64,000 nucleotides of DNA from Amphiscolops sp. MND2022 (taxonomy: Eukaryota), in assembly GCA_964187785.1 (NCBI GenBank), contig OZ076409.1, forward strand, positions 72,418,001 to 72,482,000, given 5' to 3'. Each line of letters opens with the position of its first letter. The first letter of the stretch is position 1. Position numbers and translations under genes: made by a program. The notes beneath the pieces are model-generated. The model was not told where the DNA came from. It made no database searches and was given only the letters and a program-made list of their open reading frames with translations. Below, one piece after another: positions 2,570 through 62,976 of the stretch.

Positions 2570-2573
2570 GTGG
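2457..2573 (+). other. Representative conserved 3' terminal module and junction
   Basis: (C)AACGCCACATA-N-ACGCCCAC-N-GGGCATGCCGAGGCATGCCC-TTCGACGACGTATGCCAAA-variable GC hairpin-CTAG^GTGG. Recurs in all units except U14. Confidence 0.9.
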
Positions 2574-24307: not shown

Positions 24308-26483
24308 GTGGAGGTTATTATATATCAATTAAAGTGTTTTTTTTCCGGAGTTTGTGGCTTTGGAAAAAACAAAAGGCGAGAAATTGGGCACTCCAGGCTG
24401 AACCTAAAAACACCCTAAAATTGGCCCGATTTTTTTACGATCTCGAAACCCAGCCGTACGATTTGGCTGAAAATTTGCATGTGGCTTCTAATCAATGAGT
24501 AATGAAAAAGTGTAGGAGTGACTTTTCCTGAAAAAATTGTTTTTGTTGCACTTTTTGCGCAATTTTTGACCGATTGTTGCGTTTTTTATGTCACTTTTGA
24601 CTTTTCAGGCAAAAAACTCATGGATGCTTTGATCCTAGCGCATCAAATGTTTCGACCAAAAAGTTGCAGCATTTTCTTTTACGTATGTTGAGAAAATTTG
24701 GTTGCCATCGTATTACCCCCCGCTGAGATAGAGGGGAACTTCCGGTGGAATTTAGGACCCTAAAAACGAGGACATCCTAAATTTCAGCATGAAGCGGTAG
24801 TTTTAGCGTGCTCATACCCTGCTGAAACTTTGTTGGCCATAATGAGATAGTCATGATATCATCTGTTCAGTTCACCCCCCATCACCCCCTGGACCGGAAG
24901 TGAACTTTTTTGTGCACTATCATACCGGAAGTCTCCATATTCATCGTTAAGCAGTCCTTGTACGAGCAACTACCGGGACATCAAAATTGAAGTACCACCT
25001 GAGGTCAACATAGTGACTACGTGTTGTCCAGTCATAGGTTCCGCTATGACCGGAAATGGGGTCAAAAGCCCCTATTTTGGTTGTTTTTTTAACAATTTTA
25101 CTAGTGTTTGGTCCACATTCAAGTCGCGTAAGTCAATTGAATCAGTGTGAGCAAAAACTGTATGTTCACTGCGTAGACGTAACTGACACTGACAGATACC
25201 GGAAGTAACCCCCCGTGACCGGAAGTTGTCATTTTCGACCGGAAATGGTCCAAAATGTAGCGTAAAACTAGTTTTTTAGTGCTTTTTAAAGTCAACTTAT
25301 TACTTTTTCAATCTCCGCGAGCTTGTATTCAGGTTCGTTTTTGTTACCCGTGCACTTTGCAACAAATATACATCTGTAAACTTTTCTCTATAATATCGTC
25401 GGATAGAGAAATAACGTGTTTTTGGGACTTTTTTCAAAAATATTAGACTATATCTGTCATTTTTACTCAAAGTTTTTCAACAGTACAACCACAGTGGTTA
25501 GTCTCTGCCCAAATTTTTGCCTAACAAAACTATTTGGCCCATTGGCTTCAGTTTGAGCGTTCCAGCTTTGCGTGATCATAAGCTAAAGGACTTGAAAAAT
25601 TTTCAAACTTTTTTCAAAAAAAACTTCTCACATTCATATCTCCCAAAGTGAAGAAACTTCCACACAATTAGGATTGCAAGTGGATGCATGTGGCAAGCCC
25701 TATAATTGAAGAGAAAAATGCCGCTTAGAACGTCTCTTTATCGTAAATTGACGTTAACGTATGGTGTTTGAATGAGAGCTTGATAAGAGGTCGAGAAGTC
25801 AAAGTGTGTAAATGGAACGTATGTCTCGTCGAAAACTCACCGGAATTTATGCAATGAACCCCAATTGTTTTAAATTGCAGTTGCCTACTGCAACAACGTC
25901 TTTTTGGTACATTTACCCATTTTCATAAGTGTCAAAATTATTTTTGAATTCAGTTAGCAAGAAACACTTGAGTACATTTTCATCTCTCCCAAGCGGGTGA
26001 GATGAGAATGTTCTTGCTAAATGCCAGGTACTACGGCCCACTTTTGTTTTAATGCGACGCATTCTCTGCTTTAGCACATAGATAGTTTATTTTGCGATTT
26101 TTTGTATACTCTCTGACTTGTTATTATAAACTTCTCTTCATTACTTTATATGAATTTACATCCATAATACGTTATCGTCAACGCCACATACTTTTAGGCG
26201 CCCACCATTCCGTAGGTATGTCGAGGCATACCTTTCGATTACCTATGTCAAAACGCAAACGCGATAAAAAGTGCTGAAATTCTGAAACAGTGACAAACAA
26301 TTTTGATTATTTGACATATGGTAGGTTTTTATATGAAACGTACACATCACTGACATTTCACAACATTCCAGCTGACGCCCACATACCAATGTCAACGCCC
26401 ACCGTCCGTGGGCATGCCGAGGCATGCCCTTCGACGACGTATGCCAATTTTGTATATCTAAACCCAATTGCGGTAGCCGCTAG
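24308..26483 (+). mobile_element. Unit U10, 2176 bp, same family as U9
   Basis: Same head as U9, colinear but diverged body. Relic hairpin 26214-26233, intact hairpin 26410-26429. Confidence 0.8.
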
Positions 26484-26506: not shown

Positions 26507-28496
26507 CTAGCTGCTACCGCGGTAGTGACCGCGGGCTAACGCTATATTTGGCATACGTCGTCGAAGGGCATGCCTCGGCATGCCCACAGACTGTGGGCGT
26601 CGCTACACTATGTGGCGTTGTAATGAGGACACTGCGAGGTCGTAGGGGGTGGGTGGCGATGGTAACGGTAAATAAAGGTAAAGTTAAACTTCCTAAAGGT
26701 TACAAATATGTTTTATATCATTTATTTGTACTTTTTGTTTGCAAAAAAAAACGAAAATTGTTATGAAAATCATAGGTTCTTATCAAACACTGAATCCAAT
26801 TGTTAGCTGACCTGATGGAAGGAACTCACGACATGATCGAATCACGAAGTGAAGCATCGACAGCAATATCCTATAAACAAATGGTATTTTTGTTGACAGT
26901 TTTTTGATGTGACAGCCTTCCCAAGTTGACACAAGGCCAACTTGAAAGGCTATCACAATGTTCAGTTAACAGATACTTGAAAAAAATGCAAAACTTGTCC
27001 AACCAGGATCGTAGAAAAAGCACATGTCAGCATTGTGAATGGCATTTTCAATCATTTTGGGTCCGTAAGGTCGCGTTAGAAGTATTTAAAGAGATTTTAG
27101 GCGCAACCATTGCGATTCTATCCCAGCAAAATCGCGTATTTTTTAGTTTCAGTTTTTTTTCCTGCTACAAATGTAACACATTTGAAAGGAGTTATTTCGG
27201 AAAACGAAAGAGATGAAAGTTTCTGATCAACCACAGGGTTCATCTGTATTGTAACCTTTGAATAAAGTAATTGAAAGTATTTTGTCAAGTTAGTTTTTCC
27301 AGATAATGGGCTAAAATTTTTGGAAAATACAGTAGTATATGGGAAAAAAATGTCTCATACACCCCCTTGAGCAGGCCGATTACTTCAAAAACCTCATTAT
27401 AGTGCTGAAACTCATCCTATGCACTCTGTGTACATAGTGATTGACGAAAATGAGTAATTTTTTGCTGAAATTACATTTCACTGTGATCCCAGGCTTGCGA
27501 GATGTTTAACTCAATTGAGACGTATTGCTCAAAATAACGTCTTATCGCGGCTCTTATGATATAGGAGCCATTGGTACCAGTCCCAATCGTATTTTTGAGT
27601 ATCATGGAGCCCACTGGTTACGTCAGAGTAAAAAATTTTGCTTTAATAGCTGAATTTCAATTTTCGACCTGACAAAAAATGGGTATTTGGTTCGAAAACA
27701 TTCTAAGTTAAGTTCCGAATGTCTGAAAAATGACTGAAGACCGGGTGAAAAAATTTTTTTAATACTTTTTCTTACTATAAATGGTTCCTACGTTGCCAGT
27801 AGGACCGTTCGTGATCATTCAGACTATATCCGACATGCCTGGACCAAAATTTTATGTTTAAAATGACCACTATGTAATTTAATACTAAATCATGAATACC
27901 TTGTGAAACGCTTATGACCTCGAAAAAATTTTTTATTTCACATTGGATGCAAACTGTTGGGTGTTTGGCTGCGAGTAGGTTCCGACAGAAACCATGGATA
28001 CCAAGGTTTCCAATTTAAAGCAAATAAAAATTTTTTTCTGAGGTGTTTTTGACATATGGGGTACTGATAGTAGTGAAAAAAATTTCAAAAATGTCGAATT
28101 TTCAAAAAACGTAAAAACTTTACATCTTTTGTGTTCAGTCCAATGCCCCAGCCACGAAATGAAGGTTCCAAGCTTGTTTCACAGTCAAAGTCCAAAAATT
28201 AACACATTTTGAGTTATCAGCGACTTTGTTAAAATTTTCCTCATTTTACCCTTCTAGGTGAATGACAAATCGGCCATAACTTTTTATAAAACATTTACAT
28301 CGCAAAACGTCAGCAGGAACTTCGTCTCGTATGGCCATTTCAGGGCCGCATGCAAAAAATGGTGAAATTCGTATGGTTAAATAAAAAAATAGCTCGTTTG
28401 ACATGCCGTTTTCTACTAGGAGGATTTTGATTTTGGACGGCCGGCAGGACCCGACCCGCCGGCCGAATTTTTTGTTGGGGAATTACCCCCGCCCAC
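26507..28496 (-). mobile_element. Unit U12, complete family S element in reverse orientation (1990 bp)
   Basis: Minus strand reads GTGGGCGGGGGTAATTCCCC...GTAGCAGCTAG. Closely related to U1/U21. Confidence 0.92.
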
Positions 28497-30708
28497 TAAA
28501 AAATCGGCCGGCGGGTCGGGTCCTGCCGGCCGTCCAAAATCAAAATCCTCCTAGTAGAAAACGGCCGGTCAAACGAGCTATTTTTTTATTTAACCGTTAG
28601 AATTTGGGTTTAGATTGCATGCGGCCATGAAATGGCCATACGAATGGAAGTTCCTGCTGACGTTTTGCGATTGAAACACTTTATAAAAAGTTATGGCCAA
28701 TTTGTCATTCACCTAGAAGGGCAAAATGAGGAAAATTTTAACAAAGTCACTGATAACTCAAAATGTAATAATTTTTGGACTTTGACAGTGAAACAAGCTT
28801 GGAACTGTCATTTCGTGGCTGTGGCATTGCACTGAACACAAAAGATGTAAAGTTTTCACATTTTTTGAAAATTCGACATTTTTGAATTTTTTTTCACTAC
28901 TATCAGTACACTATATGTCAAAAACGCCTCTGATAAAAATTTTTATTTGCTTAAAATTAGAAACCTTGGTATCCATGGTTTCCGTCAGTACCTACTCGCT
29001 GCCAAACGCTCAACAGTTTGCATCCAATGTGAAAATATAATTTTTTTCGAGGTCATAGGTGTTTCACAAGGATTTCTCAACTTAGTATCTATTTACAAAT
29101 TGGTCATTTTGAACACATTATTTTCATCGAAGCGTGTCAGATACCACCCTAATGCTCACGAATGGGCCTACTGGCAACGTTGGAACCATTTTTAGTAATA
29201 GAAAGTATTAAAAAAATATTTTCACCCGGTCTTCAGTCATTTTTCAGACATTCGGTACTTAACTTAGAAAAATTTCGCATCAAAAACCCATATTTGGTAG
29301 GGTCGAAATTTGAAATTCAGTTTTTTATGCAAAATTATTAACTCTGACGTAACCAGTGGAGCCCATGATACTCAAAAACACGATTGGGACTGGTATCAGT
29401 GGCTCCAATAACATATGAGCCGCGATAAGACGTTATTCAGAGCAAACGCTCTAAATCGAAGTAAACATCTCTGAAGCCTGGGATCACAGTGAAATGTGAT
29501 ATCACCAAAAGTTTACTCTTTTTTGTCAATCACTATGTACACAGAGTGCGTAGGGTGAGTTTCAGGACTATAATGAGGTTTTTGAAGTAATCGCGCTGCT
29601 CAAGGGGTGGTATGAGACTATTTTTTCCCATATACTACTACATTTCCATAAATTTGCAGTCCATTGTCTTGGAAAGATAACTTCACAAAAACAATTTTTC
29701 TACTCTATTCAGTTATTAGAATAAAGTTGAACACTGTGGTTGATCAGAAATGCTCAATTCTTTTGGTTTTTAAAAAAATTCCTTCGCATTCGTTACATTT
29801 GTGGAAGGAAGGTTATCAGTAGCTCCAAAAAAACGAAATTTAGCACGAACAGACATGCAACGATGCAAAGCAAAAACGTTTTTACAACTTCCGACGTCAT
29901 TATTTTACCCAAGAAGTTCGAAAATATCATTCGCAATGCTGTCATTCGCTATATATACGCTCGCGGTCAATTTACAAACATTTAGATTTCATTGTTCTGC
30001 TTGAAAACCAATTTTTGTCAGGTCGAAATTTTAAATTTTGCCTGGGGAGCAATACCCTTCACGCTGAAGTAAACAGTGGGGCCCAAGTTACTCAAAAACA
30101 AGAAAGAGACTGCTACAATATGTCCTAATAACATATGGACCACGATAGTACGTTTTTCACACAAAAAACTCTCATCCGAAGTAAATATGTTGAAAGCTTT
30201 TAATCACCGTGAGAAGTGATTTCATCAAAAAATAACTCTTTTTTGTCAATCACTGTTTACACAGAATTTGTAAAGTTAGTTTGAGTCATGAAATGAGGCT
30301 TTACCGTAATATGGGTTGCTCAAGGTGTTATATAAGACAAAAACTTCCTCTTTTCTACTAGCTTCTTCAAATATTTCAACCCTTTGTCACAATAAGTTAA
30401 TATTCAAAATCTCTTTGAAATGTATCTTTATGTTGGGGTGAAGTCTAAGAACAATAACTATGATCGAAGAATGCTAGTACTGGTGTTTGAACCATGTCCG
30501 GATGAACAAATCACAAAATCATCAAAAAATTGTTCCCTTTTTTGGTTATTTTGGCAGTACTAAAAATGTTAGCCGATAAATAATTTTTTCGATGGCACCA
30601 TTGGATTCCTCTCAAAAAGTTGGTTATATGACCTGTGTAATAACCCCGTATCTTTTCAATTTAAATATATTTAAAAAGCCAACTATTTTGACCAAAATCC
30701 TAAAAATC

Positions 30709-32040
30709 ATACCATTTCCTAAAAATTTTCAAATGCACCCCATTTGACGTATAAGATAAGCACAGAAAACTATCATATACCGATCAACTCTACTCCTATT
30801 GTAGATTATTAGAATTTTGTTTAGAATGAATTTTGATGAATATTAAAAAAATTTTGAACCCTCCAAAAATGGGCCAAAATTACACGAAAAAATTGACCTT
30901 AAAATACCAAAATGTCAAAAAATCATCAAAACCCAGGCTTCTTGGGGTTCTATCAACTCCGCGTGGTCCACAGAGTATGCTAAAACAGGTTTTACCCGTT
31001 TTTGAGCAATATGTGAAAAAACCGACATTTTTGGGAAAGAAAAACATACCATTTCCTAAAAAAATTCAAATGCACGTCATTTGCCGTATTGGAATAGCAC
31101 AGAAAACTATCACATACCAATCAACTCTACTTTCATTGCAGATGAACAGAATTTTGTTTAGAATAAATTTTACCGGATAATAAAAAAATTTGAATACTTC
31201 AAAAATGGGCCAAAAATACACGAAAAAATGGACCTTAAAAATTAAAATGTCAAAAAATCATCAAAACAACAGCTTCTTGGGGTTCTATCAACTCCACGAG
31301 GTCCACAGAGTATGCTAAAACAGGTTTTACCCGTTTTTGAGCAATATGTGAAAAAGCCGACATTTTTGGGAAAGAAAAACATACCATTTCCTAAAAAAAT
31401 TCAAATGCACGCCATTTGCCGTATGAAAATAGCACAGAAAACTATCACATACCAATCAACTCTACTTTCATTGCAGATGAACAGAATTTTGTTTAGAATA
31501 AACTTTACCGGATAATAAAAAAATTTGATTCCTTCTAAAATGGGCCAAAATTACACGAAAAAATGGACCTTAAAATTTTAAAATGTCAAAAAATCATCAA
31601 AACCACGGCTTCTTGGGGTTCTATCAACTCCACGTGGTCCACAGAGTATGCTTAACCCGGTTTTACCCATCTTTGAGCAAAATGTGAAAATACCGACATT
31701 TTTGGAAAAGAAAAACATGCCATTTTCTAATAAATTTCAAATGCACGCCATTTGCTGTATGAGAATAACACAGAAAGCTGTCACATACCGATCAACTCTA
31801 CTTCCATTGTAGATTATCAGAAGTTTGTTTAGAATAAATTTTGAAGGATAATAAAAAAATTTGAATCCATCAAAAATGGGCCAAAATTACACGAAAAAAT
31901 TGACCTTAAAATATCAAAATGTCAAAAAATCATCAAAACCACAATTTCTTGGCGTTCTATCAACTCCATATGATACCAAACCAGGTACTGCCAATCGTTT
32001 GAGTTATAATAAAAAAACGTCTTTTTTGGCAAGAATTCCA
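30709..32040 (+). repeat. Internal tandem repeat, 4 x ~336 bp
   Basis: Same monomer and copy number as in U5. Confidence 0.9.
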
Positions 32041-35214: not shown

Positions 35215-36285
35215 GTGGTCAAGGGGGATGCCCATCAGAAAATATTGCGAGGCCGGGGAGGGTCCCGAGAGCCGAGCACATTCTATCAATTCCTACCTTC
35301 AGGATTGCGAAGTATTTTAACCGATCTCGAAATTCACCCGTAGGATTTGTCTGAAACTTTGCATGTGGCTTAATCTCCAAAATTTAAGAACTTTTTTCCT
35401 CTGACGTTTTTCCAGGAAAATTCATTTTGTAAGGTTTTTTTGCGTTTTTTTGGTTTTTTTCATCTTTTTTCATCTTTGATTAATCAATGACCGAATCAAA
35501 GGCCATTTTCACCATGAAGGAAAACCCGTAGCGGCAAAGTGCACTTTTATGAAAATCATCAACGGTCAACGGTCTTTCGAACGGTCCAAAAAAATTTCCC
35601 CCCCGGGGGGGACCAAAGTGCCGAAAAGTGCCAAATTTATTTTTTTGACTGAATCACTTCGATCAAATTGATGATTTGAGCAGCCGGAACGGTCCGCACG
35701 GTCTCGGACAATAAGGTCAAAAATTAGCAGCATCCAATGGGGGTTCCAAAAATGTAATTTGTTCACCTGTAGGAGACATCAGAAAAAAGTTGATTTTTTT
35801 GAGTTTTGGCATTATGACTGATCGGATGATAAATCATTGCATCACGTTGAGTTGCATTTGGTGCAGCAAACGAAGCAGCTGCAGCGAACTTGAGACTGCT
35901 TAGGGGGCTGGGGTTTACTATCTGTAACAAGCAAAATAACCCTTGGGCATAAGGTATGCCAAAAAATGCCTCAAAGTGTTTATTAAGTTTTTGCAAATCG
36001 GCTAGCAAAATTCATTGTCACCGGTGTTCCGAGGGTTGCGCAGCATCTCGCGGGAACAACGGTGCTTGTTTCGAACGCAAAACCCAACATACCTCTTTGG
36101 TGACGTGACGGAGGTCACCATTGGCCTTTTTCAAGAGTGTGATGATATTTTTATCGTTGAATTGTGATGAACATACACAAAAGATTTAGCGTGGGATATT
36201 TGTTTGTGTCATACTTCAGTAACAAACTTTCAACCGTTTTGTTTAGGCCTCTACCTAGCAGTGCTCTAAATCGCTCCATCGCTAG
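35215..36285 (+). mobile_element. Unit U14, unique 1071 bp element lacking the GGCATGCC tail
   Basis: Bounded by CTAGGTGG on both sides. Has the head hairpin (CGGG-gagggt-CCCG) and the CCGTAGGATTTGTCTGAAACTTTGCATG block. Confidence 0.7.
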
Positions 36286-37564
36286 GTGGTCGTTAGCATG
36301 GGATTTTCTTTATGAGCGTAGTCCACTTTTTTTAGGCCGGGGTAGGGTCCCGGGCCGTTACCAATTTCTTACGGAGGAAAAATGTGAAAATCTGCGAGTT
36401 TAAAAAATTGGCCCGTACGATTTGGCTGAAAATTGGCATACAGCATCGTCTTGGTAAACAAATGACTTTGTCCTAGTGACATTTTGCCCAGAAAATTCAA
36501 AAAGTTGGTCAAATTGAAAATTTTTTGACCGTCTAAGGCTAAAATTTGACTTTTTCGCTTTTTTTGGTCAATTTCCTCAGAACTGGTTGATTTTGGTGAA
36601 GTAAGTCATAAGAGGTTATAAGGTCTGCAAATAGCCATCAATTGGCTTGCATAATCAGATTTTGTCAAAAGTGTTTAGTTTTTTCAAAATTTCACACTTT
36701 TTTTTCATTTCAGTGTTTTTTGATACAATTTATTGAATTTTTACTAAGTTCCACTAAATATTTTTAAAATGTTTTTAAAAAACCTTTTTTTGCACGTTTT
36801 TGATGTTTTTTGCTCTCCCATATAGGTTTTCGCATACGGGGAACCTGAATCTGACAACGAAATAATTTTATTCCGCAGTTCAACTTACGCCATTTTTAAT
36901 AGTGAAAAATCACTCATTTTCAATCTAACGAGTGAAAATATCAGAATTTAAAAACCTAAAGTTGAGTTTAAGGCGACTTACAGGTAGAAACAAATGCTCA
37001 GAAACAAACTGATTTCTTGTATTAGCTAAAGAAAGCCTTTAAAATTCTTTTTACTTTCTTTAAATCAAAATTCGACACTTTTCATGAAATTTGTCAGTGG
37101 AAAAAATTTATCATTTTTTTAAATTAAAAACTTGCTTTGTTGGTCATTTCCGTTAGTCATTAGTAGCTGTGTAATGCTCCAAAGCCTTTCAAGTTCTTTT
37201 GACCCTATTTGAAAGTTTTTGATACTGCATAATCAATCCGAGAGAACGAAACAGTTGTGTACATTCCATCTCCCTCTTGGGGGAGATGAGAATGTACTTC
37301 CTAAAGTCCAGGTACTACAGATCATATTTGGTTTTATGCGACGCCCTCTATGCTAGTGCATATAAATACAAGTTGTTTGGCTGGATTTTGCTTCTGACTT
37401 GACGTATACTGTACGTTTGGTACTGACAATACCCATCATTTACATAACAAACGTCAACGCCACATACCCTTACCAACGCCCATAGTCCGTAGGCATGCCG
37501 AGGCATGCCTTTCGACGACGCGCGCCAAACACAAGCGCGCCCGCACTTTTGCGGTAGCGGCTAG
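36286..37564 (+). mobile_element. Unit U15, very AT-rich 1279 bp element
   Basis: Head hairpin 36335-36356, GTACATTC hairpin 37259-37297, tail hairpin 37491-37510. Confidence 0.78.
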
Positions 37565-39562
37565 GTGGGCGGTAGGTTTCCCGTAGTCAAAAAAAAATTG
37601 CAGGCCGGGGTAGGGGCCCTGGCCGAGGCAAAATACCATAGAAAAGGTACCAAATTATGTGAGTTTAGAAAATTGAGCCATACAAATTCTCTGAAAATTG
37701 CTGTGTGTACCCTATCGCCCAATCTAAGAACTTTTTCCTGCTGACGTTTTGCTCTCCAAATGTTACTAATATGACTTTTTGAAAAATTTATCTCTGGTTT
37801 TTCATCAAAAATAGTGATTTTGGCAATTTTTGTGAAATATCTCTGATTGCATTAATTTTTGGACGTTGACTGTGAAACAAGGTCGGAACCATCATTTCGT
37901 GACCATGGCAATGCACTAAACACAAAAGATGTAGAGTTTTTAAATTTTTTGAAAATTTGACATTTTTAAATTTTTTTCACTACTATCAGTACCATATATG
38001 TCAAAATAACCTCAGAAAAAATTTTTTATTTTATTTAATTTAGAATCCTTGCTATCCATGGTTTCTGTTAGTATCTACTCGCTGCCAGAGACTCAACAGT
38101 TAGCATCGAATCTGAAATTAAAAATTTTTTCGAGGTCATAGGTGTTTCACAAGGATTTCACAACATAGTCTTGTTTTACAAATAGGTCATTTACAACATT
38201 ATATTTTCATCGAGGCATGTCGGATAAAGTCTTATTGCTCACGAACGGTCCTACTGGCAACGTAATAACCATTTATAGAAATATAAAGTTTTAAAAAAAA
38301 TCTTTTCACCCGTTCTTCAGACATTTTTTAGACATTCGGAACTTAACTTAGAAAAATTTCGTCTCAAAAACTCATTTTTCGTCAGGTCGAAATTTGAAAT
38401 TCAGCTTTTGAAGCACAAATATGCACTCTGACGTAACCAGTAGGGCCAATGATACTCAACAACACCATTGAGACTGGTATCAGTCGCTCCAAAAACATAT
38501 GAGCCGTGATAAGACGTTTTTTCAACAATACTGTTCAATTGATGTAAACATCGCGGAAGCCTTGGATTACAGTGAAAGTTGATTTGAACAAAAATTTACT
38601 CTTTTTTGTCAATCACTATGTAGACAGAATGCGTAGGGTAAGTTTCAGCACTAATATGAAGATTTTGAAGGAATCGGGTTGCTCAAGGCGTGGTATGAGA
38701 CACTTTTTTCTCATATACTAGTGTTTTTCAAAACCTTTTCGTTAAATATCTCGAAAAGCAAACATTAAAAAATACTTTCTGATATCTAATTTAATTCCTA
38801 GAATATAAATGAATCATGTGGTTGATCAGAAACTCTCTACTTTAATGTTTCAAGAAAAAAATCCCTTCCCATGTTTTATATCTGTAGCAGTAAAAAAAGT
38901 AGACGCTAAAAAATACGCTATTTTGCTAATATTGAATTGCAATTGTTTAGCTTTAAAACTCTTTTAATACTTCTAACGCCACCTTAAGGACTCAAGATGA
39001 TTGAAAATGTCAATCACAATGCTGACATGTAGTCTTTCTACGATCCTGGCTGGACAGATTTTGATTATTTTTCAAGTACCTGTTAACTGAATCTCGTGAT
39101 AGCCTTCTAAGTTGACCTTCTGCGTCAACTTGAGAAGGCTATCACTAAAATAAACTAAATTCTGATTTGTTTGTTTGTTTGTTCCTAACGTCTTTTGGTA
39201 CGATCGTCTTACGGTTAGTTGGTTAAACCAGGTCGCTTATACTTCCACAATTTTCGACCACAGTCCGTGTATTCGGTTCACACGACTTTACATTTTCAGT
39301 CGTTTGTTTTCGATAACTATCACAATGTACTGCCATTAGCGCAAAATTCATACTAGTACTTGGTTGGTTGAAATACTTAAACAACTGTTTCCATAGTTAT
39401 TCGCGGTGATGGTACAATCCGCGCGCCTACATACCTACGGCGTCTTGTCACTACAACGCCACATAAGGAAACAACGCCCATAGTCCGTAGGCATGCCGAG
39501 GCATGCCTTTCGACGACGCGCGCCAAATCTATGCGCGCCCGCACTTGTGCGGTAGCTGCTAG
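37565..39562 (+). mobile_element. Unit U16, divergent S-like element (1998 bp)
   Basis: S-like body from ~37850 to 39145, with different head and different final ~400 bp. Confidence 0.82.
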
Positions 39563-41549: not shown

Positions 41550-44500
41550 GTGGGCGGGGGTAATTCCCCAACTAAAAAATCGGCCGGCGGGTAGGGTCCT
41601 GCCGGCCGTCCAAAATCAAAAATATACTAGTAGAAAACGGCCGGTCAAACGAGCTATTTTTTTATTTAACCGTTAGAATTTGGGTTTAGATTGCATGCGG
41701 CCATAAAATGGCCATACGAATCGAAGTTCCTGCTGACGTTTTGCGATTGAAACACTTTATAAAAAGTTATGGCCAATTTGTCAGTCACCTAGAAGGGCAA
41801 AATGAGGAAAATTTTAACAAAGTCGCTAATAACTCAAAATGTGTTATTTTTTGGACTTTGACTGTGAAACAAGCTTGGAACCTTCATTTCGTGGCTGTGG
41901 CATTGCACTGAACGCAAAAGATGTAAAGTTTTTACATTTTTTGAAAATTTGACATTTTTGAAATTTTTTTCACTACTATCAGTACCATATATGTCAAAAA
42001 CACCTCAGAAAAAAAATTTTATTTGCTTTAACTTGGAAACCTTGGTATCCATGGTTTCTGTCGGAACCTACTCGCAACCAAACAACCAACAGTTTGCATC
42101 CAATGTGAAAATAAAAAATTTTTCTGGGTCATAAGCGTTTCACAAGGATTTCTCAACTTAGTATTAATTTACAAAATGGTCATCTTGAACACAATATTTT
42201 CATCGAGGCTTGTCGGCTATAGCCTTAATGTTCTAGAACGGTCCCACTGGCAACGTAGGAACCATTTATAGTAATAGAAAGTTTAAAAAATATATTTTCA
42301 CCCTGTCTTCAGTCATTTTTCAGTCATTCGGAACTTAACTTAGAAAAATTTCGACCAAAATACCCATTTTTTGACAGATCGAAAATTCAAATTCAACTTT
42401 TTAAGCAAAATTAGTAACTCTGACGTAACCAGTGGGACTCATGATACTCAAAAACACGATTGGGACTGGTACCAATGGCTCCAATATCATATGAGCCGCG
42501 ATAAGACGTTATTTTGAGCAATACGTCTCAATTGAGGGAAACATCTCGCAAGCCTGGGATCACAGTTAAAAGTGATTTCGTCAAAAATTTACTCTTTTTC
42601 GTCAATCACTATGTACACAGAGTGCGTAGGGTGAGTTTCAGCACTATAATGCGGTTTTTGAAGGAATCGGTCTGCTCAAGGGGTGGTATGAGACATTTTT
42701 TTTGCATGTAGTACTATATTTCTCAAAACTTTTAGCCCAATATCTCGAAAAGCTCACTTCGCAAATTACTTTCAGTTACTCTATTCGAAGCTTAGAATAT
42801 ATATGAACAGTGTGGTTGATCAGAAACTCTTGACTATTTTGTTTTTGGAAAAAAACTGCCTTGCATGTGTTACATTAGTGGCAGGAAAAATACCAGTAGC
42901 TCCAAAAATCACAATTTTGGACGGACAGACCTGCAATGATGCAAAGCAAAAACGTTTCAACAACTTCTGGCGCCACTTTTTTTACCCAAGAGGTTCGAAA
43001 TTACTATTAACAATGCTGACATTCGCTATAAATAAGATCGAGGTCAATTTACTAACACTTAGGTTATACATTTATATCTGAGAAACCATTCTTTGTCAGG
43101 TCGCAATTTTAAATTTAGTTTGGGAAGCAATACTTTTCACTCTGAAGCAAACCGTTGGGCCCAAATTACTCAAAAACTACAAAAAGACTGTCACCATATG
43201 CCCTAATAGCATATGAGATTCGACCGTATGTTTTTAACACAAAAACTCTCATCCGAAGTAAACATGTTGAAAGCCTTGAATCACCGTGAGAAATGATTTC
43301 ATCAAAAAATATTCCTTTTTCGTCAATCTTTATCTACACAGAACACGTTGTGTCATTTTCAGCCGTGAAATGAGCTTCTACCGTAATATGGGTTGCTCAA
43401 GGTGTTGTATAAGACAAAAACTTCCTCTTTTCTACTATCTTCTTCAAATATTTCAACCCTTTGTCACAAGAAGTTAATATTCAAAATCTCTTTGAAATGT
43501 TTCTTTAGGTTGGGGTGAAGTGTTAGAACAATAATTATGATCGAAGAATGATAGTATTGGTGTTTGGACCATGTCCGGATGAACAAATTGCAAAATCATG
43601 AAAAATTTCTTACCATTTTTGGTCATTTTGTCAGTACTAAAAATGTTAGCTGAAAAAGAATTTTTTTGATGGCACCATTGGATTCCTCTCAAAAAGTTGG
43701 TTATATGACCTGTGTAATAACCCCGTATCTTTTCAATTTAAATATATTTAAAAAGCCAACTATTTTGACCAAAATCCTAAAAATCATACCATTTCCTAAA
43801 AATTTTCAAATGCACCCCATTTGACGTATAAGAATAGCACAGAAAACTATCACATACCGATCGACTCTACTTCCATTGTAGATTCCCAGAATTTTGTTTA
43901 GAACAATTTTTGACGGATGCAAAAAAATTTAAACCCTCCAAAAAAGGGCCAAAATTACACGAAAAAATTGACCTTAAAATTTTAAAATGTCGAAAAATCA
44001 TCAAAACCACAGCTTCTTGGGGTTCTATCAACTCCACGTGGTCCACAGAGTATGTTAAAACAAGTTTTACCCGTATTTGAGCAATATGTGAAAAAGCCGA
44101 CTTTTTTGGGAATGAAAAACATACCATTTCCTAAAAAATTTCAAACGCACCCCATTTGACGTATAAGAATAGCACAGAAAACTATCACATACCGATCGAC
44201 TCTACTTCCATTGTAGGTTACCAGAATCTTGTTTAGAACAATTGTTGACGGATGCAAAAAAAAATTTAAACCCTCCAAAAATGGGCCAAAATTACACGAA
44301 AAAATTGACCTTAAATTTTTAAAATGTCAAAAAATCATCAAAACCACAGCTTCTTGGGGTTCTATCAACTCCACGTGGTCCACAGAGTATGCTAAAACAG
44401 GTTTTACATGTTTCTGAGCTATATGTGAAAAAACCGACATTTTGGGGAAGAAAAACATACCATTTCTTAAAAAATTTCAAATGCACGCCATTTGCCGTAT

Positions 44501-46312
44501 GAGAATAGCACAGAAAACTATCACATACCGATCAACTCTACTTCTATTGTAGATTATCAGATTTTTGTTTAGAACAAATTTTTATGGATATAAAAAATTT
44601 TTAAACCCTCCAAAAATGAGCCAAAATAACACGAAAAAATGGACCCTAAATTTTTAAAATGTCAAAAAATTATCCAAACCACAGCTTCTTGGGGTTCTAT
44701 CAGCTCCACGTGGTCCACAGAGTATGCTAAAACAGGTTTTGCCCGTTTTTGAGCAGTATATGAAAAAGCCGACATTTTTGGGGAAGAAAAACATACCATT
44801 TCCTAAATAATTTCAAATGCAGGCAATTTGCCGTATGAGAGTAGCACAGAAAACTATCACACACCGATCAACTCTACTTCTTTTGTAGATTATCAGAATT
44901 ATGTTTAGAGTAAAGTTTTATGGATATGAAAAATTTTTATACCCTCCAAAAATGGGCCAAAATGACACGAAAAAATTGACCTCAAATTTTTAAAATGTCA
45001 AAAAATTATCCAAACCACAGCGTCTTGGCGTTCTATCAACTCCAAATGACCTTCAGAGTATACCAAACCAGGTATTGCCAATCTTTTGAGCAATATTTAA
45101 AAACACCGACTATTTGGCAAGAACACCATAATATGTTCCATATAAGAAGTGAATCATTCCACATATATACCCGGTCTAATATTTCCAAATTAGCGATAAC
45201 ATTTATACATGATGGTTTTTGAAAGTGAGCTTTATAAGAGGTTGAGATGTAATAATACGTAAATGGACCCTAAGTTTCATTGAAATCTCAATGGAATACG
45301 TCCAATCAACTTCAATCCTAACTATTATATAACAAAAAACACTTGAGTACATTCCATCTCCCCATCGAGGGAGATGAGAATGTACTTTTCAAAAGCCAAA
45401 AACTTCGAATTTTAAATCTTTTGTAACATTGTATGTAACTGTTGAAACGATGAACGAATGAAAATGCTTCTAGTACCTTCATCAATTTTTGCTTCAGCTC
45501 CTATTTCTGCAGAACAAAACCAAAAGACACACTTACAGCAGTTAAGTTCGATTGTATAACTCAGTGAGTAAAGGTATGACTGAGGAAGTTCACAAGTTGT
45601 TTCAAAAGTTTCCGGCCTTCCAAAATCATGAAACGTCCACACAACCAAGATAGCAAGTGAAAGAATGCTGAATGCACCTTATTAGATGAGATAAATAATG
45701 TGTGGAACTTGCCATTATCTCAAGATGACGTTGATTTATGATCTTTTAAGGATAGTTCGATATGTGACCACAATAGTGGAAAACTTATTACTATTTGAAG
45801 AACACCGTGGAAAGCGTTCAGAAAGGACAGTATATTTGTTTCGAGCATGCATGCGTGTGTTCCTTTGGTGACGTTAGCTTAGTGTACATGACGGAGGTAT
45901 TCGAGAGATTATGATAGAGTTTACTCACAAGTCTTTGTTTTTTTAAACTTTCTATGCCGTTGAGTACATTCGTAAGGTACATCCATCCCCTTCTCTGGGA
46001 ATGTACGTTTGCCAAATGACTGTCATCCAAAATTCGTAATCCGGACGAGTTTAACTACATAAACATGTGATGAGCGTTTTCAATTCACAACCGAATAACA
46101 TTTTTTTTCTCGAAATTGATGATGGTTTTGATTTTGATGTCTTCTACTTTTATCATCATGCAAACGACCTTACCATGTCTCTCTTCTGTCGTCATTTGTA
46201 CAACGCCACATAGCGTTCCGACGCCCACCGTCTGTGGGCATGCCGAGGCATGCCCTTCGACGACGTATGCCAAATGAGCCATACCCGCACTCTGGAGTGC
46301 GGTAGCGGCTAG
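41550..46312 (+). mobile_element. Unit U18, family L (4763 bp)
   Basis: Internal repeats, hairpin 45346-45386, ends CCGCACTC-tg-GAGTGCGG-tagcgg-CTAG. Confidence 0.85.
43786..45127 (+). repeat. Internal tandem repeat, 4 x ~337 bp
   Basis: Same monomer as the other L units. Confidence 0.9.
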
Positions 46313-54269: not shown

Positions 54270-57200
54270 GTGGGCGGGGGTAATTCCCCAACTAAAAATT
54301 CGGCCGGCGGGTCGGGTCCTGCCGGCCGTCCAAAATCAAAATCCTACTAGTAGAAAACGGCATGTCAAACGAGCTATTTTTTTATTTAACCGTTAGAATT
54401 TGGGTTTAGATTGCATGCGGCCATGAAATGGCCATACGAATTGAAGTTCCTGCTGACGTTTTGCGATTGAAACACTTTATAAAAAGTTATGGCCAATTTG
54501 TCAGTCACCTAGAAGGGCAAAATGAGGAAAATTTTAACAAAGTCGCTGATATCTCAAAATGTGTTAATTTTTGGACTTTGACTGTGAAACAAGCTTGGAA
54601 CCTTCATTTCGTGGCTGTGGCATTGCACTGAACACAAAAGCTGTAAAGTTTTCACATTTTTTGAAAATTCGACATTTTTGAAATTTCTTTCACTACCATC
54701 AGTACCCCATATGTCAAAAACACCTCAGAAAAAAATTTTTATTTGCTTTAAATTGGAAACCTTGGTATCCATGGTTTCTGTCGGAACCTACTCGCAACCA
54801 AACACCCAACAGTTTGCATCCAATGTGAAATAAAAAATTTTTTCGAGGTCATAAGCGTTTCACAAGGTTTTCATGATTTAGTATTAAATTACATAGTGGT
54901 CATTTTAAACATAAAATTTTGGTCCAGGCATGTCGGATATAGTCTGAATGCTCACGAACGGTCCTACTGGCAACGTATGAACCATTTATAGTAATAAAAA
55001 GTATTAAAAAAATTTTTTCACCCGGTCTTCAGTCATTTTTCAGACATTCGGAACTTAACTTAGAAAATTTTCGAACCAAATACCCATTTTTTGTCAGGTC
55101 GAAAATTGAAATTCAGCTAATAAAGCAAAATTTTTTACTCTGACGTAACCAGTGGGGTCCATGATACTCAAAAATACGATTGGGACTGGTACCAATGGCT
55201 CCTATATCATATGAGCCGCGATAAGATGTTATTTCGAGCAATACGTCTCAATTGAGGTAAACATCTCGCAAGCCTGGGATCACAGTGAATTGTAATTTTA
55301 TCAAAATTTTACTCATTTTTGTCAATCACTATGTGCACAGAGTGCGTAGGGGGAGTTGTAGCACTATAATGAGGTTTTTGAAGGCATCGGGTTGCTCAAG
55401 GGGTGGTATGAGACATTTTTTTCCTATATACTACTGTATTTTCCAAAACTTTTAGCCCATTATCTGCAAAAACTAACTTGACAAAATACTTTGAGTTACT
55501 CTACTCAAAGCTTAGAACATAGATGAACACTGTGGTTGATCAGAAACTATTTACTATTTTGTTTTTAGAAAAAACTGCCTTGCATGTGTTACACTAGTGG
55601 CAGGAAAAATACCAGTAGCTCCAAAAATCACAAATTTGGACGGACAGACTTGCAATGATGCAAAGCAAAAACGTTTCAACAACTTCTGACGCCACTTCTT
55701 TTACCCAAGAGGTTCGAAAACGCCATTAACAAGGCTGACATTCGCAATAAATAAGATCGAGGTCCATTTACTAACACTTAGGTTTCAAATTTGTTTCTGA
55801 GAAACCCATTTTTGTCAGGTCGCAATTTCAAATTTAATTTGGGAAGCAAAATTTTTCACTCTGAAGCAAACCGCTGGGCCCAAATTACTCAAAAACAACA
55901 AAAAGACTATCACCATATGCTCTAATAACATATGAGATGCGACAGTATGCTTTTAACACAAAAACTCTCATCCGAAGTAAACATGTTGAAAGCCTTGAAT
56001 CACCGTGAGAAGTGATTTCATCAAAAAATATTTCTTTTTCGTCAATCACTATATACACAAAACCCGTTGTGTTAGTTTCAGCCGTGAAATGAGGTTCTAC
56101 CGTAATATGGGTTGCTCAAGGTGTTGTATAAGAGAAAATCGTCCTCTTTTCTACTAACTTCTTCAAATATTTCGACCCTTTGTCACACGAAGTTAAAATT
56201 CAAAATCTCTTTGAATTGTTTCTTTAGGTTGGGATGAAGTGGTAGAACAATAACTTTGATCCAAGAATGCTAGTATTGGTGTTTGGACCATGTTTGGATG
56301 AACAAATCGCAAAATCATGAAAAATTTGTTTCTTTTTTTGGTTATTTTGGCAGTACTAAAAATGTTAGCTGACAAATAATTTTTTCGATAGCACCATTGG
56401 ATTCCGCTCAAAAAGTTGGTTATATGACATGTGTAATAACGCCGTATCTTTTCAATTTAAATATATTTAAAAAGCCAACTTTTTTGACCAAAATCCTAAA
56501 AATCATACCATTTCCTAAAAAATTTCAAATGCACCCCATTTGACGTATAACAATAGCACAGAAAACTATCATATACCGATCAACTCTACTCTCATTGTGG
56601 ATTATTAGCATTTTGTTTTGAACGAATTTTGATGGATATTAAAAAATTTTGAACCCTCCAAATATGGGCCAAAATTACACGAAAAAATTGACCTTAAAAT
56701 TTTAAAATGTCAAAAAATCATCAAAACTACAGCTTCTTGGGGTTCTATCAACTCCACGTGGTCCACAGAGTACGCTAAAACAGGTTTTACCCGTTTTTGA
56801 GCAATATGTGAAAAAGCCGACATTTTTGGGAAAGAAAAACATCCCATTTCCTAAAAAAAATCAATTGCACGCCATTTGCCGTATGAGAATAGCACGGAAA
56901 ACTATCACATACCGATCAACTCTACTTTTATTGTAGATGATTAAAAATTAGTTTAAAACAAATTTTGACGGATATTAAAAAATTTTAAACCCTTAAAAAA
57001 TGGGCCAAAATTACACGAAAAAATTGACCTTAAAATTTTAAAATGTCACAAAATCATCAAAACCACAGCTTCTTGGGGTTCTATCAACTCCACGTGGTCC
57101 ACAGAGTACGCTAAAACAGGTTTTACCCGTTTTTGAGCAATATGTGAAAAAGCCGACATTTTTGGGGAAGAAAAAATAGGCATTTCCTAAAAAAATCAAA

Positions 57201-59018
57201 TGCACGCCATTTGCCGTATAAGAATAGCACAGAAAACTATCATATACCGATCAACTCTACTCCCATTGTAGATTATTAGAATTTTATTTTGAATGATTTT
57301 TGATGGTTATTAAAAAATTTTGAGCCCCCCAAAAGCGGGCCAAAATTACACGAAAAAATTGACCTTAAAATTTTAAAATGTCAAATAATCATCGAAACCA
57401 CAGCTTCTTGGGGTTCTATCCACTCCACATGGCCCACAGAGTATGCCAAACCAGGTTTTGCGCGTTTTTGAGCAATATTTGAGAAAGCCGAGTTTTTTGG
57501 GGAAGAAAAACATAACATTTCCTAATAAAATTCAAATGCACGCCATTTGGCGTATGACAATAGCACAGAAAACTATCACATACTAATCAACTCTACTCTC
57601 TTTGTAGATCACCAGAGTTTTGCTTAGAATAAATTTTGATGAATATTTGTAAATTTTAAACCCTCCTAATATGGGCCAAAATCACACGGAAAAATTGACC
57701 GTAAGGTATTAAAATGTCAGAAATTCATCAAAACCACAGCTTCTTGGGGTTCTATCATTTCTATATGACTTTCAGAGTATACCAAACAAGGTATTAACAT
57801 TGGGCGATAATTAAAAACACCAATTTTATTTTAGAAGAAAACCATAATAAGTTCAATATAAGAAGTGAATCATTCCATATATATACCCTGTCTTATATTT
57901 TAAATTAGCGATAATATATATACTTGATGTTTTTTGAAAGTGAGCTTCATAAGTGGTTGAGATGTGATAATACGTAAATGGATTCCAAGTTTCATCGAAA
58001 TGTCAATGGAATACGTCCAATCAACTTCAATCTTAACAATTAGATAACAAAAAACCTAAGTACATTCCATCTCCCCATCGGGGAGATGAGAATGTACTTT
58101 TCAAAAACCAAAAACTTAGATGTTTTTTTTTGTAACACTTACTGTAACTGCTGAAATGATGAAAGAATAATTATGCTTCTAATAACTCCATGATTTTTTG
58201 CTTCAGCATTTTTTTTGCAGAACAAAACCATCAGACATATTTTTCGCAGTTAAGTTCGATCGTATTACCCAGTGAACAAAGGTATGGAAGGATGTTTACA
58301 AGTTGTTTCAAAACTTTCCCGCCTTCCAAAATAATGAAACGTCTACACAACCAAGATAGCAAATGAATGAATGCGGAATGCATCTTATTAGATAAGATAA
58401 ATAACGTGTAGAACTTACCTTTATCTGAAGTTGACGTTGATTTATGATCTTTAGAGGATAGTTTGATTTTTGACCATAATAGTGGGAAACTAATTATTAT
58501 ATGAATGATGGCGTGGAAAGCGTTCAGAAATTGTAGTATTTTGGATTCGAGCATGTATGCGTGGGTTCCTTTGGTGGCGTTAGCTTAGTGTACATGATGG
58601 AAGTTTTCGATCTGTTATGATTAATTTTACTCACGAGTCTTTGTTTTTCCTATTTTTTTGCCATTAAGTACATTCATTCTATCCCCTTTTCTGAGAATGT
58701 ACGTTTGTCAAATGACTGTCATCCAAATTTTGCATTCCCGAAGAGTTTAAATACATAACACGTGTTTAGCGTTTCCAAATCACAACCGAGTAACATTCTA
58801 TTTTTTTTTCTCAAAATTGATAATGGTTTTGATTTTGGTGTCTTCTACTTTCATCATCCATCATAACAACCACCTTACCATGTCTCTCGCTTGTCTTCAT
58901 TTTACAACGCCACATAGTGTAGCGACGCCCACAGTCTGTGGGCATGCCGAGGCATGCCCTTCGACGACGTATGCCAAATTTAGCGTTAGCCCGCGGTCAC
59001 TACCGCGGTAGCAGCTAG
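54270..59018 (+). mobile_element. Unit U23, family L (4749 bp)
   Basis: 3' body closest to U2, but terminal hairpin of the U1 type. Hairpin 58058-58099. Confidence 0.85.
56505..57843 (+). repeat. Internal tandem repeat, 4 x ~337 bp
   Basis: Same monomer as the other L units. Confidence 0.9.
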
Positions 59019-61000
59019 GTGGGCGGGGGTAATTCCCCTTCAAAAAATTCGGCCGGCGGGTTGGGTCCTGCCGGACGTCAAATAGTGTGAAACATCCAGT
59101 AGAAAACGGGGGTAATTATCAGCGATTTTAAAATTTAACCGTTAGAATTCGGACTTGGATTGCATGCGGCCCCAAAATGCCCATACAAATCGAAGTTCCT
59201 GCTGACGTTAAGCGATAAAAACACTTTATAAAAAGTTATGGCCCATTTTACGTTCACTTAGAGAGGTAAAATGAGGAAATTTTTAACAAAGTTGCTGATA
59301 ATTCAAAATACAATAATTTTTGGACTTTGACTGTGAAACAAGCTCGGAACAGTCATTTCGTGGCTGTGGCATTGCACTGAACACAAAAGATGTAAAGTTT
59401 TCACATTTTTTGAAAATTCGACATTTTTGATTTTTTTTTCACTACTATCAGTACACTATATGTCAAAAACACCTCTGAAAAAATTTTTATTTGCTCAAAT
59501 TTAGAAACCTCGGTATCCATGGTTTCCGTCAGTACCTACTCGCTGCAAAACGCTCAACAGTTTGCATCCAATGTGAAAATAAAATTTTTTTGGAGGTCTT
59601 AGGTGTTTCACAAGGATTTCTCAACTTAGTATCAATTTACAAATTGGTCATTTTGAACACATTATTTCCATCGAAGCTTGTCGGCTATAGCCTTAATGTT
59701 CTAGAACGGTCTCACTGGCAACGTAGGAACCATTTATAGTAATAGAAAGTTTTAAAAAAATTTTTTCACCCGGTCTTCAGTCATTTTTCAGTCATTCGGA
59801 ACTTAACTTAGAAAAATTTCGACCAAAATACCCATTTTTTGTCAGGTCGAAAAATCAAATTCAGCTTTTTAAGCAAAATTATTAACTCTGACGTAACCCA
59901 TGGGGCCCATGATACTCAAAACAACGATTGACACTGGTATCAGTGGCTCCAATAACATTTGAGTCGCGATAAGACGTTACTTTGAGCAATACGTCTCAAT
60001 TGAGGTAAAGATCTCGCAAGCCTGCGATCACTGTGAAATGTGATTTCATCAAAAATTTACTCTTTTTTGTCAATCACTATGTGCACAGAATGCGTAGGGT
60101 GCGTTTCAGCACTATAATGAGGTTTTTGAAGGTATCGAGTTGCTCAAGGGGTGGTATGAGACATTTTTGTCCCATATACTACTGTATTTTCCAAAATTTT
60201 TAGCCCAATATCTGGAAATACAAACTTGACAAAATACTTTCAACTACTTTATTCAAAGGTTACATTATAGATGAACACTGTGGTTGATCAGAAACTTTCA
60301 TCTCTTTCGTTTTCCGAAATATTTCCCTTCGCATGTGTTACATTTGTAGCAGAAAAAAAAATCGAAACTGAAAAATACGCTTTTTTGCTAATATAGAATC
60401 GCAATGATTGTGTCTAAAAACTCTTTAAACACTTCTAACGCAACCTTACGCACCCAGAATGATCAAAACTGCTATTCACAATGGTGACATGTGCTCTTTC
60501 AACGATCCTGACTGAACAATTTTCGCAAATTATTCAAGTACCTGTTAACTGAATCTCGTGATAGCCTTTTCAGTTGGCCTTGTGTCAACTTGGGAAGGCT
60601 ATCACATCAAAAAATTTTCAACAAAATTTTTTTTGTTCATTGGAAATGACAGTCGATATATAATTTCGTGATTCTATACTACCGTTAGTACCTTCCATTA
60701 AGTCACCTGACGATTGCATTCAGTCTTTGATAAATACCTATGAACTCGAATTCATATTTATTAATTTTGTGCTAAAAATAAACATCAAAATTATCCAAAT
60801 TATTCAAAATTGAGTCTTTACCGTTTTTGTTTTTCTTTTTCTACTGTTATTAGGCCCATCAACTTCCTACAGCCACGCTCTCTGTCATTAGTACAACGCC
60901 ACATAGTGTTGCGACGTGCACAGTCTGTGGGCATGCCGAGGCATGCCCTTCGACGACGTATGCCGAATACCGCGGGCCTACGCCCGCGCTCCCCGGCTAG
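59019..61000 (+). mobile_element. Unit U24, family S (1982 bp)
   Basis: Head as U4/U13, tail as U3. Confidence 0.85.
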
Positions 61001-62976
61001 GTGCGGGGGGGTAACCCCAACAAAGATATTGGAGGATTCGGGTAGGGTCCTGAATCCGATCTTAGTACCGCCAGCTATCAGTAGAAAATTTCCCTCAAAA
61101 ACCGGGATCTCGGGAACTAACCGTAGGATTTGAAAGTTGGAGCGGCCCCCACCAGATTTTCCCGAATAGATCGCCCCCCACCGGGCTCCATACCCCGGAA
61201 AATTTTTTTTTGGCCACACGGGCGACAGTTAGGGGGTCATTTTAGGGGTAAAATTCATATTGGTCCATATAACTTTTTTCCTGTTGGTTTAAAAGTTTGG
61301 GAACCCTGCTAAAGGTTTTTCGACCATGTTGCAAGGGCTCCGGAGGTGCAAACCAAATTTTTCTATCTTGAAGCTATCTCCAAGTACCCCCCCGCTCAAA
61401 CCGTTATTTTTCCGGAAACGCAGGTTTTTGACCCGGAAGGAGTCGTCTGAGCGCGGGGTCGTTAGGTGATGTTTTGGGGACGGCCTTGAGACAAAGTGGG
61501 GGACAAGTAGTTTTCCAACCTCAATTTACCCCCCGGACGGGAAATGACCGTTATATGAGCGTGAAAAATGCCCCCCTCCACGTTTTACCGCTATTTCCGG
61601 TGTGAAGGTGTGGGAGTAGCGCGTCGGGTGCCATATATCAAAAGTAGGTTTAGACAAGGATCTATCAAAAACATGTGGTTTGGGACCCCCTGACCCAACC
61701 CGTTAGCGGGAAATGGGGCTTCCGCCTCCTTTTTTTTCGGTTAAAAACGGAAAATGGGCATTGAGGGGTAAATATCTCGTGAACGCGTGGAGCTACGGTG
61801 TCCTTCACTACTACAAGGTTTCATACCCATGATATGGTGCCTTCAGGGGGGCAAACAGATTTCCGCTATCTATCACCGTTACGGACTTGGCCCCCCAGCC
61901 TAACCGCTATGTGACCGGAAATGTCACTTTTTGAGCCCAAAGGGTCGGTCCCAGCCAGGGAACGTTAGATAACTTTTTGTAGTACTCATTGAGACGAGTT
62001 GGGGGACATAGTTTCAGTCACCCCCCGTTACCCCTTGTGACCGGAAATGACCGTTATGTGGGTAAAATTAGGATTTTTGTACTTTTTGAAGGGCATTTAG
62101 GTGCGGAAGGAGTGGTAATAGGTGCTTGGACACTATATGATGGAATGGAGGACGTGAGGCGAACATTCAGACATAACCGTTATGTTGACCCTAAAGTCCC
62201 CCTGGTACCGTAAACGACCGGAAATGGTCAAATTTTGTGTCTATTGGGTACAAATGTTTGGTATTTTGTAAATAAAAGTATCTATTAGGTGTTTCGACGG
62301 TCTGCAGTAGTGAACATAGTCATGAAACCTTGTCGGGGGGTAACGGTATATAGCACCGGAAGTCCAAAACGTTAGAGACGGGATAGGTTTTTTCGTTTTA
62401 AAATGTCTTTCGGCGTACTTTTGTCAACTAATATGGAATATTTTTTAAAATTAAAGTTTTTCCATATAGTTTCAGAGACTCCCAAACCTCAAACAACATA
62501 ACCGTTACCTTATGATAGCCTTTCAAGTTGGCCTGGTGTCAACTTGGAAGGGCTATCCTTCAAAAATCGTTGATCAAGTGTGTTTTTGGGTATGTTTGAA
62601 TCATTTTAGAATCAATTAGAGCTTCAAGAAATGTTTGCCAACTACAAAAACTATGTCGTGATGATTCCGTTATTAGAGTAATGGTTAACAAAATATTGAT
62701 TAAGTTGATTTTTTACATTTCAAAAGTGTCCTAAAAGCCAGAAAACCTCTTTACCAAACAAATGGTATTGATTGGATTGTATATAACATGTAATAAAAGT
62801 TCAAATTGATTATTACGTTTTATTATGTAAGCTGAAACGTCATATTATAGTTTAATTAACGTCAACGCCACATACTTTACACCAACGCCCACCGTCTGTG
62901 GGCATGCCGAGGCATGCCCTTCGACGACGTATACCAAATACATTTCATATCTACACCCACCCGCGGTAGCAGCTAG
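61001..62976 (+). mobile_element. Unit U25, family G (1976 bp)
   Basis: Starts GTGC (the only non-GTGG start). Homologous to U7 with one fewer 503 bp repeat. 3' part homologous to U0. Confidence 0.82.

Follow-up and report, generated by a model that had tools for sequence, protein, structure and literature searches.

A 5' subterminal hairpin as a probable left-end signal of Helitron-like elements stacked at CTAG|GTG junctions

Helitrons have been sorted into two groups by their ends, and their choice of target has remained open. HLE1 elements have TC...CTRR ends and insert between A and T, HLE2 elements have short TIRs, T|T sites and a DUF6570 domain, and a number of HLEs have been left unclassified (PMC11417382). 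Helitron2 is already known to carry a 5' hairpin (PMC5148889), and one Sphagnum HLE2 family has captured a GIY-YIG domain, yet keeps TIRs and TT sites (PMC11417382). Helraiser requires dsDNA donors, and in its circles cleavage falls on the plus strand where the right end meets the left end (PMC5876387). HUH enzymes often bind hairpins (PMC10288648). The elements described here belong to a clade that breaks both end rules.

The window analysed (G000:C1:72418001-72482000, 64,000 nt of a 1.07-Gb genome) is in its entirety a head-to-tail stack of non-coding elements of 1-5 kb, which belong to several families, have bodies mostly unrelated between families and are joined at CTAG|GTG. The plus strand of the window has 25 such junctions, and a hairpin core followed 22 of them; the three coreless junctions comprised two from a single family whose hairpin is of another kind and one whose head had been interrupted by an insertion. 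The hairpin under study (61034-61057, plus strand) has the core GGG-TAGGGT-CCT and the outer stem GGATTC/GAATCC, with GA flanking each side. It lies near the 5' end of a 1,976-bp non-autonomous element, 5'-GTG...CTAG-3' (61001-62976, plus strand); the genome contains 817 copies of its head type. The tail-head junction CTAG|GTG is at 60997-61003 (plus strand), and elsewhere identical heads come after many different tails. At the right end of the unit (62900-62976, plus strand) come, in order, a palindromic block of about 33 nt, a variable segment of 30-45 nt in which a hairpin is frequent, and CTAG. The palindromic block was common to the tails of unrelated bodies, and the last 30-45 nt of the tails came in a restricted number of variants, which were reassorted among the bodies.

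Several units in the window were related to coding elements. Nucleotides 144-1069 of unit 61001 showed 78% identity over 939 nt to a 20.2-kb RepHel-encoding element (G000:C1:70548466-70568672). The 2,791-bp unit at 18060-20850 (plus strand; hairpin 18094-18114) had both ends in common with the same element, its first 1,566 nt being 95.8% identical and its last 83 nt matching the last 84 nt of the element at 83.5% identity. As judged from these alignments, the unit is likely a deletion derivative of the 20.2-kb element. In the 1,271-bp unit at 20851-22121 (plus strand; hairpin 20886-20907), a stretch of 350 nt (21258-21607) was homologous to the leader of element A, an autonomous element described below (82.7%, E 7e-96).

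The remaining plus-strand units included the main 2-kb family of the window (579-2569; hairpin 610-637), in which the loop was TCGGGT or TTGGGT in most copies, a 4.8-kb type (2570-7340) with about four internal 336-bp repeats, and a 1,071-bp family (35215-36285) with the loop GAGGGT and a different tail. Tandem copies of the 336-bp repeat were seen at 4805-6065, 13541-14806, 30703-31968, 43780-45115 and 56499-57757. The coreless family (units 22122-24307 and 24308-26483) carried an alternative hairpin with an unrelated loop (22149-22184, plus strand). The hairpins of units 36286-37564 (36335-36356, plus strand) and 37565-39562 (37603-37624, plus strand) were exact string matches; indeed, all six hairpins named in the original prediction were found exactly where they had been placed, 31-49 nt past a CTAG|GTG junction.

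Across the genome, the pattern CTAGGTG-N25-50-GGGTAGGGTCC had 1,527 matches, and the reversed control had none. When 302 heads were picked by the upstream tail alone and not by the hairpin, the core GGK-N1-4-GGG-N1-2-CC(C/T/A) was present at +20 to +80 in 292 (shuffled sequences, 1.1%), and eight of the ten coreless heads were from one multi-copy family with a long hairpin and another loop at the same place. The distance was nearly fixed: 29 of 31 families had the core between +37 and +47, and the hairpin spanned about +30 to +60. The loop consensus was KAGGGN, with its G and C runs preset by the hairpin selection filter, and TAGGGT occurred in eight of the 31 representatives. A conserved TAGGGT loop, as first described, was therefore an overstatement, given the KAGGGN consensus, the TCGGGT or TTGGGT loop of the commonest window family and the unrelated loop of the coreless family. 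The resemblance to telomeric TTAGGG had been put down to possible coincidence, and this view held: a telomeric link found no support, the loop being variable and none of the listed 3' flanks consisting of telomeric repeats. A G-quadruplex was rejected because the number of G tracts, judged by eye, differed between families. A small hairpin ahead of the main one was not conserved better than shuffles in any of the 31 families (p 0.05). A known structured RNA was likewise rejected, since none of 4,227 Rfam families reached the gathering score over the window.

We then compared the stems between families. From 101 distinct hairpins, 96 were in the standard register and were dereplicated to 31; the other five, which had longer loops and included that at 18094, were dropped before dereplication. 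The mean fold energy of the 31 hairpins was -8.4 kcal/mol with native arm pairs vs -5.8 kcal/mol with swapped arms, and none of 100,000 arm-swap permutations was as low as the native value, a test inflated by the relatedness of the families. Only for seven of the 31 hairpins did no other arm pair better than the native one. The predicted co-variation of the outer arms was thus borne out across the 31 families. The outer stems did differ and keep pairing; the description of them as fully exchanged did not hold for all, because the hairpins at 36335 and 37603 have the same left arm. Within the 61001 family, one stem position was T-A in 53 fetched copies, A-T in five and unpaired in none, an exchange that was probably a single event. 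The RNAalifold consensus had only four pairs because the registers of the outer stem shift.

Mismatches in the 31 hairpins were G.T 19, A.C 0, A.G 25 and C.T 6. The contrast of 19 G.T with no A.C agreed with the claim that the wobbles pair only on the plus strand, although the argument hangs on two columns at the core edge, which held nearly all of the G.T pairs (one G.T in the outer arms alone). DNA parameters gave the top strand the better fold in 25 of 31 families, and RNA parameters did so in 30 of 31. The proposal of a structure-selected element recognised on one strand was therefore supported by the co-varying arms, the folding bias of the top strand and the HUH-encoding autonomous members; what it had missed was the class of element. 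Since a single-strand HUH transposase is encoded by the autonomous elements that begin with this hairpin, we favour ssDNA rather than RNA as the folded strand.

Long coding elements were found inside the stacks by fetching array edges. Element A (C1:23994514-24008188, 13,675 bp) and element B (C2:102382135-102395858, 13,724 bp) both start with CTAG|GTG and the same hairpin and end with CTAG, and the protein that each encodes is about 2,370 aa long; the RepHel frame of element A is intact and lies on the minus strand of G000:C1:23994514-24008188. Intact 2,370-aa frames are thus present in the genome, and some of fifteen further coding elements had split frames. All 17 delimited RepHel elements (A, B and the fifteen; 12-20 kb) began with GTG and the core, the nearest upstream junction being taken as the 5' end in those with leaders of at least 3 kb. 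Two coding copies (C1:76.28 and 76.45 Mb) stand outside the 17, as the fetched stretch had no 5' junction. At least 1-3 kb lay between the hairpin and the ORF downstream of it. The coding copies at C1:71.6 Mb and C4:77.1 Mb shared 99.6% identity over 14 kb and lay among different neighbours, which suggests that they moved recently. Furthermore, a 3,072-bp unit was 98.8% identical to the C4 element over its first 902 nt and had the same tail type.

The encoded protein consists of an HUH Rep, a PIF1 helicase and a GIY-YIG domain. PF14214 (Helitron_like_N) and PF05970 (PIF1) scored over the Pfam cut-off, and the C-terminal GIY-YIG was over the cut-off in protein P0003 and slightly below it in P0002. 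The HUH and YxxxY residues were invariant in 34 of 34 aligned relatives; the tyrosines that Helraiser uses are Y727/Y731 (PMC5876387). A structure model of the Rep region (pLDDT 80) had a single fold match under E 1e-3, which was Helraiser 7LCC (E 2.9e-8), and the sequence match to 7LCC covered the helicase only. The Rep of this clade is accordingly predicted, from the model, to fold like that of Helraiser. An accessory ORF downstream of RepHel was kept in nine of nine aligned copies and is predicted to be an RPA-like OB fold; the accessory ORFs had no Pfam name. This ORF (L074:7845-8897, minus strand; L110:2188-3495, plus strand; seven other coding copies) appeared RPA/MCM10-like with a four-cysteine insert. 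A 222-aa ORF without a Pfam match lay between RepHel and the OB-fold ORF (L068:1363-2028, minus strand), and its start may be SGNH hydrolase-like.

In a tree of 35 Rep+helicase proteins, which was unrooted, in which long branches meet and whose HLE1-like and HLE2-like comparators came from this genome alone with no Repbase references, 24 clade members were split by a 100/100 branch from three HLE1-like and eight HLE2-like proteins. A quick version with the Rep only gave a support of 94. DUF6570 was found in none of 13 clade proteins scanned vs all six HLE2-like controls. A profile search of public data returned at least 401 protein clusters at E 1e-30, with GIY-YIG in 49 of 55 long matches; the named hosts for two of 20 matches looked up were Myxine glutinosa (hagfish) and Styela clava (tunicate). 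Viral contigs had no relative. The metagenome scan yielded one locus, a distant relative with DNA, and the 3.5 kb upstream of it was without the core; the motif is known from this genome alone. This genome also has HLE1-like and DUF6570-bearing HLE2-like RepHel frames (L111-L130), of which one has an N-terminal JAB domain and one has OTU. The hairpin is likely a cis signal of a Helitron-like variant, and the clade is widespread and outside the end rules of HLE1 and HLE2. In the papers searched, among them 10.64898/2026.09.17.752431, PMC6431247 and PMC13404089, we found no description of a RepHel-GIY-YIG clade with GTG/CTNG ends or of mixed stacks; Repbase, subscription journals and the HELIANO and Paramecium supplements may already hold one.

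The elements run 5'-GTG...CTRG-3' without target duplication. In a survey of tail tetramers in 285 units (36 false internal starts were excluded from the TSD counts), each of 50 tail 9-mers had one fixed terminal tetramer, CTAG or CTGG, independent of the preceding sequence. Fetching 20 array-end loci gave six host-flanked heads, one rearranged head and 13 headless ends (5'-truncated, older or non-elements). The six host-flanked insertions were at CTAG|AT (3), CTTG|AT (2) and CTCG|AT (1) and all ended in CTAG, including the three solo copies in CTTG|AT or CTCG|AT sites. CTAG as a 4-bp TSD was rejected on these grounds, that is, the tetramer fixed per tail and the CTAG end kept in CTTG|AT and CTCG|AT sites. 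Among paralogues of one flank, the empty site had a single CTAG in eight of 11, the host site being CTAG|TT. Within the window, a full-length unit is inserted in reverse (26507-28496, minus strand) at TTTA|GTTG in a second unit's head, and comparison of its flanks with the intact head at 41550 shows that not a single base was gained, lost or changed. Given this inverted insertion and the empty site, only GTG...CTAG fits as the ends.

The two bases after tails not followed by G were AT in 23, TT in six and others in two (n=31 listed array ends), and 17 further tails were followed by GT. The base preceding the 61001 head was G in 815 of 817 copies, with CT[C/G/T]G preceding nine. From the host flanks, the bases after tails and the bases before the 61001 head, we infer the target CTNG|DT, a sequence similar to that of the CTAG|GT junction. 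An IS607/Fanzor2 element that uses a GG core was rejected because A or T follows the 3' end in the 31 listed array ends and the partner is RepHel. The 3' ends, CTAG or CTGG, were of the HLE1 CTRR type, with a terminal hairpin in many, not all, tails. Asymmetric TIRs of 12-17 nt were sought in 26 elements, and in all 26 the longest 5'/3' inverted match was 7-11 nt (shuffles average 8-9).

Sites of the type CTNG|DT should be very common in 1 Gb. A head came directly after 1,870 of 1,942 tails of one type (96%), a figure possibly inflated by concatemers or unequal exchange, which also build stacks. In nine arrays, the head class differed in 123 of 181 neighbour pairs, and a coding-element tail without the shared palindromic block was present in eight copies followed by seven different heads. 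The joints between unrelated families were exact at CTRG|GTG, which argues for joints made by an enzyme. Same-class neighbours were commoner than expected (58 vs about 35 in shuffles) and multi-unit blocks were duplicated at 97%, indicating that amplification contributes to the stacks. In one sequencing run (of unknown kind, a small share), contigs of one related subfamily had the head unchanged and a different tail before it; these contigs do not enter the evidence.

Array-rich regions were seen at G000:C1:70.45-76.48 Mb, C2:102.3-103.9 Mb, C1 3.5, 24.0, 29.5 and 38.1 Mb, C3 3.4 Mb and C7 16.1 Mb. The first spans about 6 Mb (outer limits) and is interrupted by LTR-like ORFs near 76.1 Mb, and that on C2 extends to the contig end. 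At G000:C1:23962000-24017000, two opposite-strand stacks converge. Near positions 1400-1600 of loci L147, L153 and L154, head-only fragments of about 70-100 nt had a new head immediately after them, possibly through early termination or insertion just past the hairpin.

We put the probability at roughly 0.75 that the hairpin is a left-end ssDNA signal for a Helitron-like transposase with a preference for the end-start junctions of its own elements, where both the binding and the junction targeting are what we infer. The Rep-helicase-GIY-YIG transposase would recognise the left end and the CTAG|GTG junction through the folded hairpin strand. By analogy with Helraiser and IS91, the Rep would nick the top strand at CTAG|GTG, the helicase would peel the strand off after the nick, the ends of the peeled strand would be joined to recreate CTAG|GTG in a circle, which would then integrate at a junction-like site. 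Resident junctions may be preferred because the circle junction and the array junction are the same sequence. To judge from the stacks, a resident junction with a hairpin would be a far better target than a bare CTNG|DT, so that families pile up, and local duplication would enlarge the stacks. The GIY-YIG domain is a candidate for second-strand or target nicking. A bolder version, to which we give somewhat less than even odds, makes the left-end hairpin a landing pad: the transposase of an undescribed, widespread clade with a fused GIY-YIG nuclease would handle resident CTAG|GTG junctions as it does the junction of its own circle, swap elements of any family into them and thereby build megabase cassette-like arrays.

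The transposase or some protein of the host could instead recognise the motif in the form of dsDNA or a cruciform, with the G/C core as the binding site and the arms aiding extrusion. The core letters are indeed much more fixed than the arms, and Helraiser initiates on dsDNA donors (PMC5876387), so that first recognition need not involve a folded strand. The mismatch counts given above, however, favour the top strand for A.G over C.T as for G.T over A.C, and the family with another loop retains a stem; we consider the dsDNA reading unlikely. Still less probable is an RNA structure in element transcripts that serves regulation, processing or as a guide. Folding with RNA parameters, which favours the top strand in nearly all families, would suit it, as would the tandem GA flanks, which are common in RNA. 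Against it are the place of the hairpin, far upstream of the ORF and at a fixed distance from the DNA end, the precise insertions without TSD, a partner enzyme that is a DNA HUH nuclease and the empty Rfam search.

The least probable of the alternatives is that the stacks are satellite DNA derived from old Helitron debris through rolling-circle concatemers and unequal exchange, with the hairpin inherited passively. Plants and bats are known to carry Helitrons in tandem arrays (PMC5876387, PMC11934779), and the duplicated blocks and the excess of same-class neighbours fit such a history. It accounts poorly for unrelated families joined exactly at CTRG|GTG, for arms that co-vary though the bodies are unrelated, and for the existence of intact frames and solo insertions. 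The left-end ssDNA signal remains the reading that we prefer.

If the junction targeting is true, it explains the origin of mixed megabase arrays and would mean an integrase that prefers a defined short site; if the landing-pad version is also true, animals would have a safe harbour of the elements' own making and a single-strand integrase with a site preference. The clade is invisible to finders based on TC/CTRR ends or TIRs. This genome offers coding copies that are intact and nearly identical, exactly defined ends, a rule for the target and 31 naturally occurring variants of the stem, with which left-end recognition and target choice are directly testable.

As in HLE1 and Helraiser, a Y2 HUH Rep is fused to a PIF1-like helicase, the 3' CTRR often follows a hairpin, no TSD is made, an RPA-like gene lies downstream of RepHel and head-to-tail junctions occur (PMC11417382, PMC5876387). 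Unlike HLE1, this clade starts with GTG instead of TC, inserts at CTNG|DT instead of A|T, and has a conserved 5' subterminal hairpin, a fused GIY-YIG, a separate place in the tree and stacks of many families. With HLE2 (Helitron2, Helentron, FoHeli) it shares the hairpin at the 5' end, a long RepHel that includes an additional nuclease domain, the occurrence of OTU in some relatives and internal tandem repeats in non-coding copies (PMC11417382, PMC5148889), whereas it is without asymmetric TIRs, DUF6570 and the T|T target and has GIY-YIG where HLE2 has an AP endonuclease. The third-clade Helitrons of Paramecium, compared by description only, are likewise outside HLE1 and HLE2, have long ORFs and build a genomic compartment by sequence-targeted, oriented insertion; they differ in their CCAA ends and telomeric-repeat targets, and their main text has no GIY-YIG (PMC13085455). 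Among prokaryotic systems, IS91 and IS200/IS605 are similar in their single-strand HUH transposition (PMC10288648, PMC5876387). They are without the fused helicase of the present clade. Their one-sided tetranucleotide target, the lack of a TSD and the hairpins near their ends are further points of likeness, whereas multi-family stacks are, to our knowledge, a feature of the present elements and not of these.
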